Shown here: positions 14,026-51,815 of the stretch, one piece after another | How the letters are laid out: each line of letters starts with the position of its first letter | Numbering within the stretch: the stretch's first letter is position 1 | The notes under the pieces: model-generated | What the model was told of the DNA's origin: nothing | Databases searched by the model: none | The model's input: only the letters and a program-made list of their open reading frames with translations | Program-made: the position numbers and the translations under genes | Assembly (NCBI GenBank): GCA_964016885.1 | Contig: OZ024745.1 | Coordinates: 102,672,001-102,736,000 of the forward strand | Reading direction: 5' to 3' | Source of the DNA: Eledone cirrhosa | Lineage: Eukaryota | Length of the DNA stretch: 64,000 nucleotides

Positions 14026-14237
14026 CCCTCCCACTGCTTGCGACTGCTGGACTAGAAGACAGGCGAGAATATATAGTTTTCTCGTCTGTGTAAATGAGGT
14101 GATTAATTTTTCTATTATAAGTTGAGGCAACTTATACAGCTTCATATGCAAATGAGATTAATCACCTCATTTACACAGACGAGAAAACTATATATTCTCG
14201 CCTGTCTTCTAGTCCACCAGTTGCAAGCGGTGGAGGG

Positions 14238-14281
14238 ACCGTCCTGACGATGGCTAGTTAAGCCTGAAATGCATAGACGGT
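14238..14281 (+). ncRNA. type I minimal hammerhead ribozyme
   Basis: Stem I accgtc/gacggt; core CTGACGA; stem II GGCT/AGCC; GAAA; palindromic stem III ATGCAT; AUA cleavage triplet. Confidence 0.75.
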
Positions 14282-14404
14282 TGTCCCCCTTGCTTCTGCT
14301 AGACATCACCAGAGGGCGTTAGCCCCCCCCCCCCCCGGTGTTTGCATAGCTACGGCTTCCTACAACCTTATTTCTTTGGAGATACGAAATATTTATACAT
14401 ATAT

Positions 14405-15075
14405 ATCAATGGAACCGGCATGCTCCAATGGAGGTGCAATAGTAATTTACACAAATGGCAAAGCGTAAATGAACTGAGAGAGAAATTGGACATAAGAGGG
14501 ATCAGATGCAGTGTGCAAGAGAGGAGATTGCGTTGGTATGGTTATGTGATACGTATGAAGGATGACTGCTGTATATATATATAGAGAGAGAGATATTACA
14601 CCTCTCTAAGACAATGTCACGGGACCGAGATCTTTGGCGCTACGCAGTAATACAGAAGACCCGCCTTGCCTAAGTTCAAAGCGAAACCTACAGTCAGTAG
14701 GCACATCTTAATCAAATATACACCCCCATCCCACTAACCCAACTCCCCCACCCACCCCCATCAACACCACCCCTTTCTCTGTAATGTTATGTTGGTACCA
14801 CAACATCCAGTCCTAAAAAAATGAGGTCGTGTAGGTGTCATGACAAAAAAACACACAATCCATGCTGTAATGTGGCCGTGTAGGTAACACGGTCAAAACC
14901 TCCCAGTCCACACTGTAAACGTGGTTGGTGTTAGGAAGGGCATCCAGCCGTAGCAAACCTGCCAGACAGTCCTATACGAGCAAGACGACCAATCTTGTCT
15001 CAAGTGGAACAATTCCCGTCTAAACCCATGCTAGCGTGGAAGATAGAGGTTAAACGTTGTTGATGATGATGATGA
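14405..15075 (+). mobile_element. RTE 3' fragment
   Basis: MLQWRCN..ELREKLDIRGIRCSVQERRLRWYG, 3' UTR matching 51851-52350, (GAT)n tail. Confidence 0.85.
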
Positions 15076-15121
15076 TAGATAGATAAATAGATAAAGATAC
15101 ATATATCTTATGTATATTTAA

Positions 15122-15770
15122 ATCATCATAATCCCTGCTTAACGTCCATTTTTCAAAGCTAACATGGGTTAGGCGAGTTGTCTCGCTGTGAGACAAGTCA
15201 GATAAAGTGACCATGTCCTGTTCGTACAGAATTGATTTTGGCTACGTTTCTATGGTTGGATGCCCTTCCTAACACCAGTAACATTATTATCGTAATAACT
15301 ACATGACCACTGTGCAGTGTGAACTGGATGCTTTTTGTCATGGCACAAACACAACCATTTTACAGTGTGCAATGGGTGCGTTTTGTCATGGCACCAAAAC
15401 GACCACTTCACAGTGGTAGTGGGGGATGAGGTACATGGGGATTGGAGAGGTAGATCTAGGGGGAGGGTATGGATGATGAGTGGGGTCTTATGACATGAGA
15501 GGTGCATGTAAGGGGTAGGGGTAGGTAGGGGAAATAGTGCACACTGGACATATGCTTAAATCTGTGCACATAGGAAGGCAAGTCTTCTGTATTACTGCAT
15601 AACGCTGGAGATCTCAATCCTGTGTCATCAGCTTTGAGAGATGCAATTGAGGTCAGCTTTTATCACCTCATCTCAAGTCTCCCTAGGTCTTCCTACTCCA
15701 TAGCTTCCATCAACTTTAAGTTCCCTGCACCTTTTTATGCAGCTGTTATCATTCATTTACATCACATGTC
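15122..15770 (-). mobile_element. decayed RTE 3' fragment
   Basis: Reverse complement of the same 3' UTR and ORF end (gtcttctgtattactgcataacgc). Confidence 0.65.
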
Positions 15771-15789
15771 TATACTAACACAATCTCCT

Positions 15790-16008
15790 GGACAAGGTTT
15801 GTTTGTGGAAGACCAGCTGTCACCCATACCAGTCTCACCAACACCGATGTTGTCCAAAGGAAAGGCAATGGCCGATACAGCTCATTTCTACAGGAGCAAC
15901 GTGAAATAAAGTGTCTCGCTTAAGGACACAATGCATCACCCAGTGCAGGAATCGAACTCACAACCCCACAATTGCAAGCTTAATGCTCTAACTGCTACGC
16001 CATGCACC
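15790..16008 (-). mobile_element. CORE-type SINE, second subfamily
   Basis: Shares ctcatttctacag..gtgaaataaagtgtct..aaggacacaatgc with the 645-985 family but has a different 3' part. Related copy at 22105-22385. Confidence 0.7.
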
Positions 16009-49120: not shown

Positions 49121-49124
49121 TATA

Positions 49125-49920
49125 ATGCACACAATGCAGATCCTGGGTACACAAGAGATGTAGTGGGATAGCAGGCAAACTAACAGGTAGGGAGAAATAC
49201 GTATGCAGTAGATGTACAGGGAAATTAGACAGTAGAAGTCACATTGATAGACACATTTTTCAAATGCAGGTGGGTGCTATAGAAGTGGTGGATAGCTTCC
49301 GGTACATAGTAGATCAGATTAGAATGGGAGGGGGGTGTTCCGAGGCCATAGTATCTAGAATAAGGACGGGTTGGAAGAAGTTTAGGGAGCTGCTTCCTCT
49401 GCTGATGAAGAAGGGTTTCTCCCTGCGTACGAAAGGCCGGTTATATGATGCCTGTGTGAGGAGCGCGATGCTGCATGGTAGTGAGACATGGGCAGCAACT
49501 GCAGAGGATATGCGATGGCTGGAGAGAACTGAGACAAGCATGCTCCATTGGATGTGCAATGTCAATGTGCGTGAACGACCCAGCATGAATGTGTTGAGAG
49601 AGAAACTGTGTCTGAGAGGAATAAATTGTAGTGTGCGAGAGAGGAGACTGAGGTGGTATGGACATGTGATGTGCATGGAGGATGACCGATGGGTGAAGAA
49701 GTGCCAGGAAATGCCAGTTGAAGGAAGACGTGGTAGAGGTAGACCACGAAAAACATGGGCGGAGGTGGTGAGAACAGACCTCAGATCGCTGAAGCTCACG
49801 GTGGAGATGACGACGGACCGTGACAAGTGGAGAGATGCTGTGCTGAATAAGACCTGTCCCACCCTTACAAGCAGGGAAAAGCGGACGTAAAATGATGATG
49901 ATGATGATGATGATGATGAT
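49125..49920 (+). mobile_element. RTE 3' part (PHD-containing family)
   Basis: CTQCRSWVHKRCSG..CSRC, EVVDSFRY, MLHGSETW, RRLRWYGHV and GRGRPRKTW; (ATG)n tail. Confidence 0.9.
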
Positions 49921-50391
49921 ATATATATCTACACATATATGTATATGTGTATGTAAAGTATGTGTTAGTTAATTACCAACCCTATTATATGCAGGATAGA
50001 GCACTGTACAAAGTACACATGTGGGTCTGTTTACTCCAGAGTATAATTATAATCATGAAGTACAAGTCAACAGGTTAGAATTCATAACAATCATCACCGA
50101 AATATATACAACATTATTATGAATAAATGATGTGAATTCTAACCTATTGACTTGTACTTCATGATTATATATATATATATATATTTCATAGATAAATTGT
50201 AGTATCATACATTTTAAAATCTCTATAACTGTTACATTATGCAACGTTTTTCTTACTCACACCTTCTCTATTGAATTTATTACGTTTTCGCATTTTCTCA
50301 TTATTAGGGTATAAATGTTAAATTTTGTCTTAGGGTAATCACTACCTTGATTAAATCTTAACCATTTAACATCTGAGGCTATGTCATGTAT

Positions 50392-50451
50392 CATTATATT
50401 TTTTCTGATGAGGACATACTGTTGTACATCCGAAATATGTATAATAAAATG
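50392..50451 (+). ncRNA. type I hammerhead ribozyme (weak stem I) within a (TA)-flanked insert at ~50185-50597
   Basis: CTGATGA GGA(ca TAC tgtt GTA ca)TCC GAAA TATG TA. The A/U-rich stem I cattatatt/taataaaatg is imperfect. Confidence 0.55.
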
Positions 50452-50774
50452 TAATTGATCAAAAGAACATCTATTTTATTAATATTTGTATTTTAATATT
50501 AATAACTCTGGAAAATTATTTTTTCCGTAGAGTGCTTCCAATCTACTGTAAAACTCATTCTTTGACATACTCATTGAATATTGTTTAACACTTTAATATA
50601 TATATATATATATATATATATATATATATATATATATATATATATATATATATAAGTTCCGGTATGAGCAAGACAAGGTCACCCGACTTGGCATTGACCA
50701 CAACAGGAGAACTCATACTAATGTGGAAGAATGGACGTAAAACGGTGATGATGATGATGATGATGATGATGATG

Positions 50775-51030
50775 ACAAGGGTGATTTTTTAAGCCTTCGT
50801 TATGTTTATTGATTGGTGACGCAGATTTCGCTCTTGATCAGCTCAAGGTTCGATCTGTATCGATCTGGTCCGACTCTGGAATCAAAAGCTCATCAGACCT
50901 CAGAGATCCAATGAGCTTTTGATTCCACAGTCAGGCCAGATCGATACAGATCGAACCTTGAGCTGATCAAGAGTGAAATATGTGTCACCAATCAATAAAC
51001 ATATTGAAAGCTTATCAAATCGTCCTTGTA
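50775..51030. mobile_element. foldback element with hammerhead
   Basis: About 120-bp inverted arms around ~50895-50910. Confidence 0.75.
50815..50899 (-). ncRNA. type I hammerhead ribozyme with long stem II
   Basis: ggt CTGATGA GCTTTTGAT...ATCAAGAGC GAAA TCTGC GTC acc: 9-bp stem II, 3-bp stem I. Confidence 0.6.
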
Positions 51031-51204
51031 TTATTATATTACACTCTGTCTAGCTCTACACCTTGCTACTGATGTGAACCTAAACAGCAAGTGTTTACCT
51101 GGGTGAACCTACAGTAACTTCACATTACATTCCCTGGATATATATATATATATATATATATATATATATATATATATATATATATATATATATATATATA
51201 TATA

Positions 51205-51815
51205 ATGAGTTGTAATAAAATGAAAACGAAATTTCATTTCTCACTCTTAGTACGGCACTTACTTAAATGTAAGTATGTATGTATACGTACATACATATAT
51301 GTATACAGACGTACAGTAGCATGCATATATATATATATATATATATATATATATATATATATATACATATATACATACAGGTACACATACATATATGTAC
51401 GCATCAGTTTAGCGGACGCTTATTATAGCGCCCGCTTTGTTCGTTTGTAAACAAACTGAACAGCCTGTATTTATGCCGCACGGTGTTAAGGCAACCACGT
51501 CACCCTTTTGTTCAACACTGACACAGGAACGATGTACTAGTTTCAAGCTTGTTAGCTATCATCAGCACCGTATGCCCATCTGCCAGATAGTTGAATGTTC
51601 GAAAGTATATACTTTCCTTATGAAAATTAACGGCTGAGCAGCCTAATTTGCATATCGAGTGAGTTAAATCGGTCAGGCGCACCGAAAACGATGAGTTGTA
51701 ATAAAATGAAAACGAAATTTCATTTCTCACTCTTAGTACGGCACTTACTTAAATGTAAGTATGTATGTATACGTACATACATATATGTATACAGACGTAC
51801 AGTAGCAGGCATATA
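51205..51815 (-). mobile_element. hammerhead element with 486-bp repeat period (partial tandem)
   Basis: 51205-51330 is repeated at 51691-51815, with an inverted partial copy at 53431-53490. Embedded in (TA)n. Confidence 0.75.
51529..51571 (-). ncRNA. type I minimal hammerhead ribozyme
   Basis: acggtg CTGATGA t AGCT aaca AGCT t GAAAC TA GTA catcgt. Palindromic stem III ACTAGT, GUA triplet. Confidence 0.85.

Follow-up and report, generated by a model that had tools for sequence, protein, structure and literature searches.

Why should four short inserts in one stretch of Eledone cirrhosa DNA, each associated with (TA)n, place an octamer, a TATA box and a hammerhead ribozyme at nearly identical distances from one another? 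The stretch (contig OZ024745.1, positions 102,672,001 to 102,736,000; hereafter the window) comprises 64 kb of repeat-rich animal DNA from a genome of 3.0 Gb. Judged by their sequence, the inserts belong to non-autonomous hammerhead retrozymes that have the words and spacings of host small nuclear RNA (snRNA) promoters, a block that probably drives their transcription. The geometry of the cassette itself is real. All four octamers exist as first reported (14146–14153 and 28723–28730 on the forward strand, 51653–51646 and 40364–40357 on the reverse strand; sites 1, 2, 3 and 4, respectively), each is preceded by AT, and the TATATA or CATATA box follows in its reported place after 35, 35, 34 and 35 nt. 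Of the ten octamers that the window contains, four are followed by YATATA at 34–35 nt (binomial P ~4e-5 against the window's own background). An additional element had gone unmentioned in the preliminary description: a YCAS core, similar to a proximal sequence element (PSE), lies exactly 8 nt past the octamer at all four sites. The second hammerhead copy of site 1, inverted and devoid of an octamer, had likewise been overlooked. The features of these sites are listed below in window coordinates.

14126..14409, forward strand: site 1, retrozyme copy of family F1, right arm of an inverted pair
13833..14124, reverse strand: left arm of site 1, inverted F1 copy lacking the octamer, with core, TATA at 14075–14070 and hammerhead core from 14019
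14146..14156, forward strand: site 1 octamer (14146–14153) plus NAG, the word of the host U6, U6atac and MRP promoters
14162..14166, forward strand: site 1 PSE-like core TCACC, 8 nt past the octamer
14189..14194, forward strand: site 1 TATA box TATATA, 27 nt from the core and within a palindrome; predicted +1 at A14219
14229..14295, forward strand: site 1 type I hammerhead, core at 14244, palindromic stem III, predicted cut after 14275
28665..29034, forward strand: site 2, copy of family F2 between two (TA)n runs, with a second octamer-like repeat at 28691
28723..28771, forward strand: site 2 promoter block of F2, octamer 28723–28730, core TCAGT 28739–28743, CATATA 28766–28771; predicted +1 at A28796
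28791..28875, forward strand: site 2 type I hammerhead, core at 28819, 3-bp stem III, predicted cut after 28852
51205..51811, reverse strand: site 3, copy of family F3 flanked by (TA)n, one 486-nt unit together with a second copy of its initial part
51606..51653, reverse strand: site 3 promoter block of F3, octamer 51653–51646, core TCAGC 51637–51633, TATATA 51611–51606 within a perfect palindrome; predicted +1 at A51581
51511..51595, reverse strand: site 3 type I hammerhead, core at 51565, palindromic stem III, predicted cut after 51535
40312..40460, reverse strand: site 4, truncated copy of F4 (an old family), octamer 40364–40357, core CCAGC 40348–40344

The hammerheads of sites 1–3, identified by eye and by folding, are intact minimal type I ribozymes with full CTGANGA cores (14244, 28819 and 51565), stem II, GAAA, UH and, on folding, a long stem I. 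A strict stem scan of the window missed all three because of an unpaired base next to stem II, the Rfam scan of the window returned no hammerhead among 108 matches at E<=1 (mostly TA-repeat microRNA noise), and a repeat finder was swamped by microsatellites. At these three sites the start, which is predicted only, falls between TATA box and ribozyme as had been expected, 47–57 nt before the cut site. Site 4 is a different matter. The CTGAAGA at 40239, formerly read as its relic hammerhead, is unrelated flank outside the homology of the element, which ends at query base 149 or earlier (~40312, just past the TATA) in 45 of 45 non-self matches; copies of F4 have a different hammerhead about 45 nt after the TATA. 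The site 4 copy itself ends at its own TATA box in a short TA run and contains no hammerhead.

Genome-wide, the pattern octamer-33/36-YATATA-30/50-CTGANGA has 26,770 matches as compared to 5 for the reversed pattern, which bears out the suggested enrichment of the cassette upstream of hammerheads. This figure reflects copy number, and the relevant unit is the lineage. Among the 100 cassette matches listed and assigned by reading, 84 belong to F3, eight to F1 and eight to F2. A search with the spacing of U6 gave 328 matches (23 in the control), comprising indel variants of F1–F3, some chance rows and the families F12 and F13, which are older, have a spacer of 39 nt and contain true hammerheads. 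When motifs were masked, alignment linked F2 to F14 (z 5.5) and F3 to F14 (z 6.5), while the other 26 of 28 family pairs stayed at z<=2.1 and single segments of other pairs reached z 3–4. We thus distinguish five octamer lineages (F1; F2/F3/F14; F4; F12; F13), of which F14 is represented by two copies and F13 by two single decayed copies, plus the octamer-less F5. The octamer lineages may share a distant origin. The four inserts of the window had been described as sharing no evident similarity, and this does not hold for sites 2 and 3, which the intermediate family F14 connects; it does hold for the other lineages, which cannot be aligned. The cassette therefore recurs in unalignable lineages, within small non-autonomous hammerhead retroelements as proposed. 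Searching for hammerheads irrespective of a promoter gave 24,532 matches (4,152 in the control), including families without the cassette such as F6 and F10, whose hammerheads are of the type found in the pseudo-long terminal repeats (pLTRs) of Penelope-like elements (PLEs). Among the distinct upstream stretches listed for these promoter-independent hammerheads, only one (L171) had an octamer within 125 nt. F3 sequence is also present in contigs of sequencing runs from organism A and partly in those from organism B (contigs from 4 of 6 runs compared).

To interpret the cassette we used host small RNA genes retrieved from the same genome, which provided 20 distinct promoters, 14 of RNA polymerase II (Pol II) and six of RNA polymerase III (Pol III) genes. 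The U6 search gave 48 matches; at 12 of the 32 loci viewed, from three independent places, the octamer word stands at −78 to −76, and of ten U6atac loci viewed one has the promoter words. The five octamer-bearing Pol III promoters (three U6 loci, U6atac and RNase MRP) read TATG(C/G)(A/T)AAT[TG]AG, then 38–40 nt, then TATA at −30 and G at +1, so that the octamer–TATA spacer is 38–40 nt in 5 of 5. All 14 distinct hand-picked U1, U2 and U5 promoters have a YCART core at −58 to −55, a TATA-like box 25–28 nt further on and AATTA 32–34 nt before the core; the octamer-NAG word is absent from each of them. The RNase P RNA gene (L277:1435–1850; G000:C24) combines a core of U1/U2 type with a TATA box 32 nt on and a T8 end, and has no octamer, which makes it a natural test of the spacing rule. 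Because RNase P shares the core yet has the 32-nt spacing and the T8 end, polymerase class seems to be tracked by the distance between core and TATA (Pol II 25–28 nt, Pol III ~31–33 nt) and not by the core itself. The host octamer promoters would accordingly have a PSE-like slot about 8 nt past the octamer. Insects offer a parallel, with spacings of 8 versus 12 bp. Their PSEA/PSEB/TATA two-element system is comparable, and small differences in it set the polymerase (PMC1761439). The rules of the present animal could be useful for guide-RNA vectors.

The promoter models did not include 14 of the 32 U6 and nine of the ten U6atac loci, which have no promoter words and look like retrocopies, nor six U6 copies with a displaced octamer. 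Among the U6 and U6atac loci L102–L113 and L192–L200, such promoter-less copies are numerous, and several of them are joined to other repeats or lie within (TA)n. The displaced octamers belong to a U6 cluster (G000:C19:31.78–31.84 Mb; L037, L038, L040–L043), in which 6 of the 16 copies viewed have a short repeat inserted at the TATA and the octamer at −270, possibly a natural promoter knock-out that spread in the array.

Measured against these host genes, F1–F4 and F14 have the octamer-NAG word, YCAS at +8, TATA 26–27 nt from the core and A at TATA+30. The core thus has the host position relative to TATA and predicted start, and the octamer corresponds to the activator site of host snRNA genes. 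As some family anchors contained part of the core, we regard copies selected for a 34–35-nt spacer without conditioning on the core as the unbiased sample: of these 57 copies, 49 carry YCAS at +8 and 45 carry A at TATA+30. A model trained on host Pol II promoters, with the octamer left out, ranked the octamer+8 site first of ~756 positions in F2, F3 and F14 and second in F4. It also ranked the core of F5 first; this family, which has no octamer, reads AATTT-33-CCAGT-27-TATAAG, which is the layout of U1, U2 and U5. The octamer–TATA spacer is 34–35 nt in F1–F4 and F14, and the host-like 38–40 nt is matched only by F12 and F13 (39 nt). The window families join the host octamer to a PSE-like core at Pol II-like spacing (26–27 nt), and F12 and F13 are U6-like in their spacer. 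T6–T7 runs, which would stop Pol III, occur in the F3 units of two of three arrays, and a 3' box at host level is present in one of seven families, F2 (near its 3' end, ~28975–28990 on the forward strand; score 11.8, host range 5.8–15.8).

Several observations weigh against reading the block as a host-type snRNA promoter of this kind. Not one of the 20 distinct host promoters combines an abutting octamer with Pol II spacing, and the whole set for comparison of octamer promoters consists of five Pol III genes. In vertebrates, moreover, a TATA box together with a PSE denotes Pol III. The core of F1 (TCACC) ranks 12th only, F12 ranks 309th and the box of F2 is CATATA. One F3 array has only T4; the F12 consensus contains T5–T6 runs, in poorly supported columns, and the terminator test gives no backing for Pol III in F12. 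Within the U6-spacing class, the F12 consensus has G at TATA+30, yet only 3 of 9 single copies do. Lastly, no autonomous partner carrying the cassette was seen at the loci viewed, a sample that is short of a genome-wide search for a partner: the pLTRs beside GIY-YIG frames (L026, L185, L179, L183, L258, L186) are without it.

How the polymerases are assigned is the point at which an alternative comes closest. All octamer families might be transcribed by Pol III from a type 3, U6-like promoter that tolerates the shorter spacing. An abutting octamer-NAG indeed occurs in 5 of 6 host Pol III and 0 of 14 Pol II promoters, the vertebrate signature just mentioned points the same way, and copies of F1, F2 and F3 often end right after a T run. 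Against this, TATA boxes also occur in host Pol II genes, the longer spacing is retained in each of the six host Pol III genes, and the T6–T7 runs of F3 would prevent Pol III from reading on into the next hammerhead. We also rejected Pol III terminators as the cause of the copy ends, because older F1 copies without a T run (L241, L258) end at the same place. We consider exclusive use of Pol III unlikely. The preliminary description had favoured an ordinary mRNA-type promoter of POU site plus TATA box, independent of SNAPc. Such promoters are known from histone H2B and immunoglobulin genes, and the exact octamer and TATA with CA at TATA+30 would suit one. It leaves aside the conserved PSE-like core at +8, the identity of the word with that of U6 and MRP, and the layout AATT-33-core-27-TATA of U1, U2 and U5 in octamer-less F5; what is present instead is the host snRNA layout with an abutting octamer, and a stand-alone POU promoter is hardly credible.

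The motifs might also be kept for reasons other than transcription. As RNA signals, they could serve as a binding or priming site for the mobilising reverse transcriptase (RT), or form a hairpin that includes the TATA word: the block immediately follows the fixed RT start site on its 3' side, the position at which a Penelope protein binds its template in vitro (PMC11167929), and the TATA word is in a hairpin in F1, F2, F3, F5 and F12. Such hairpins surpass flank shuffles (p<0.05) in just three of nine stretches from elements versus one of 12 host promoters, too weak a signal for us to retain the hairpin as a strong common feature, and an RNA role would not account for three elements, both spacings and the start base agreeing to the base with those of host snRNA genes. 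We hold it to be improbable as the sole function, although both roles could coexist. A further possibility is passive descent, in which one ancestor captured an snRNA promoter and the families inherited it in a state that no longer works. In its favour, F2, F14 and F3 share homology, and z values of 3–4 occur in a few single segments from other pairs. The remaining sequence, however, has diverged past alignment while motifs and spacings stayed fixed, and young arrays of near-identical units carry the cassette intact. Common descent with such conservation of the motifs points to selection, and inheritance of a dead promoter seems to us very improbable.

The anatomy of the elements is that of non-LTR (long terminal repeat) retrozymes with Penelope-style ends. 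The units are short (F3 422–502 nt, F5 310 nt; overall 310–500 nt) and non-coding, with no open frame for RT plus GIY-YIG inside and, in the window, no open reading frame (ORF) of 120 aa over sites 1, 2 or 4. Each unit type has a type I hammerhead, and the computed circular folds are stable (z −3.3 to −8.7). F3 and F5 form tandem arrays with at least two hammerheads, often with an inverted part; among the loci viewed, F1, F2, F4 and F12 occur only as monomers, partial tandems and inverted pairs. Site 3 is such a partial tandem (direct repeat 51205–51365 / 51691–51851), and at site 1 the left arm lost its octamer at the inversion point, with its 3' end adjoining (TA)n 13805–13832. Within a family the copy ends are fixed; they adjoin (TA)n and are located upstream of the promoter block. 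Between the units and adjacent PLE frames there are (TA)n junctions.

Details beyond the cassette differ between families. F2 has two or three tandem octamer-like repeats before the core (28665–28730; L009:1434–1507), one F3 subfamily has a second POU-like word between core and TATA, and F4 and F12 have additional AATTA words upstream. The F5 arrays at L186, L187, L144–L157 and L164–L170 consist of near-identical 310-nt units, a few of them inverted head to head against the longer run, and end in (TA)n; they look like very young, rolling circle-like insertions.

We propose that the core is bound by SNAPc, with an Oct-1-type POU protein assisting from the adjoining octamer, and that both load Pol II on F1–F5 and F14 and Pol III on F12 and F13. 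A Pol II start is likely because the 26–27-nt spacing is that of U1, U2 and U5. Transcription would begin 47–57 nt ahead of the cut site and read into the next unit, aided by the missing 3' box in six of seven families. Two hammerheads would then excise a monomer, by dimer pairing where stem III is palindromic, the form that cuts as a dimer (PMC4209133), and the monomer would be ligated to a circle containing the promoter sequence. A Penelope-type RT/GIY-YIG protein might make the nick in (TA)n, begin priming at the fixed A/T-rich site and continue all the way round the circle, so that new copies would inherit a promoter that lies upstream of their own start. A copy that unites promoter, start and cut site must derive from a template extending across the cut, either a circle or a multimer left uncut. 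A single copy, such as site 2 or site 3, could undergo transcription yet would form no circle. GIY-YIG elements lie near retrozymes, and the retrozyme copies have Penelope-style ends and inversions, but no matching pLTR was seen at the loci viewed. More tentatively, animal retrozymes in general may be selfish snRNA-like genes, in which rolling-circle copying permits an upstream SNAPc promoter that ordinary short interspersed elements (SINEs) cannot carry. In this genome, a 4–5-nt change between core and TATA would have switched lineages from one of the two polymerases to the other, and the promoter of the dominant families would be a hybrid, absent from the host genes examined, of the U6-type abutting octamer and U1/U2 spacing. 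If so, tens of thousands of sites would compete with the real snRNA genes for SNAPc and Oct-1.

In the PLE terminal repeats of family F6 (L026, L185, L179, L183), the GIY-YIG frame is followed by the hammerhead, then by a TATA-like word, ATG and a short tail that leads into the next frame, an order that would match internal RT initiation. Pfam named one of four PLE-like frames (GIY-YIG); we presume from motifs that these frames belong to the Neptune and Naiad clades. Long open fragments with a GLYRDD motif (L002, L012, L013, L119, L260), which we take to be Naiad-like, lie in the same (TA)n runs as retrozymes. Cephalopod Naiads have been described as long inactive (PMC8557442), which an open GLYRDD piece of 379 aa may put in question. 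Elsewhere in the window, an extra hammerhead-like core at 50390–50465 on the forward strand (CTGATGA at 50405) has a paired stem II and GAAA, weak stems I and III and no cassette; it probably represents a different family in a decayed state. None of the 44 ORFs of the window was recognised as a host gene, and frames at 5854–10322, 19438–20610, 25751–26727, 48075–53394 and 62302–63033 are presumably fragments of long interspersed elements, mariner-like and other transposons, as far as their motifs suggest.

Among known systems, the closest are the animal non-LTR retrozymes (Cervera and de la Pena, 2020, PMC7229834; Li, Clavereau and Pollet, 2026, bioRxiv 10.64898/2026.07.22.740005). Like the elements here, these are protein-free units of a few hundred nucleotides with one type I hammerhead each, range from monomers to multimers, have a stable circular fold and occur together with PLEs. 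The cassette consequently does not define a class of its own as had been suggested: non-LTR retrozymes were already known, F5 is without the octamer, and F12 and F13 have a spacer of 39 nt. No promoter is named in the accessible text of either paper, where the word occurs twice (both T7) in PMC7229834 and zero times in the preprint. Unlike Penelope-linked retrozymes, those studied here had no homologous autonomous pLTR among the loci viewed. Retrozymes are reported to be highly expressed in all tissues, which their describers call atypical and, in the available text, do not explain (PMC7229834); such expression would follow if every unit contained a housekeeping promoter of snRNA type. In the accessible literature we found no account of the cassette, of its two classes of spacing or of any promoter that drives non-LTR retrozymes in invertebrates.

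Newt satellite 2 reportedly combines an octamer and a PSE, with a start about 47 nt before the cut. This hammerhead repeat with an snRNA promoter (Coats, Zhang and Epstein, 1994; cited in PMC2220036), which Pol II uses (PMC6765202), precedes the architecture that had been thought undescribed. It shares with the present elements a tandem hammerhead repeat and an internal snRNA-type promoter. Unlike the newt repeat, the latter occur in an invertebrate, in at least five unalignable octamer lineages plus one without octamer, and have a TATA box, an octamer abutting the core and two spacing classes that match host Pol II and Pol III genes. An active promoter of this type would extend the single newt case to an invertebrate with several independent-looking lineages.

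The SINE-like repeats Sm-alpha and Sj-alpha of Schistosoma are said to have a tRNA-type internal promoter. As in the elements here, promoter precedes hammerhead, and the promoter comes to lie at the 3' end of the cut monomer, so that tandem copies are needed; they are reported as Pol III elements, in contrast to the upstream snRNA-type promoter here (PMC6765202). Like the retrozymes, Penelope-like pLTRs have a hammerhead whose stem III is palindromic, occur as partial tandems and as inverted, truncated copies, target (TA)n and have a fixed internal RT start (PMC4209133, PMC8557442, PMC11167929), whereas the retrozyme units are without an ORF, and the pLTRs seen in this genome have no cassette, F6 having a TATA-like word after the hammerhead instead. 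With host snRNA promoters (U1, U2, U5; U6, U6atac, MRP, RNase P) the retrozymes share the octamer-NAG word, the core, TATA at −30 and both spacings; unlike the host genes examined, their commonest layout is a hybrid and most units lack a 3' box. As far as the accessible literature goes, the retrozyme class and one case of an snRNA promoter, newt satellite 2, were already known, and the cassette is a new variation on them.

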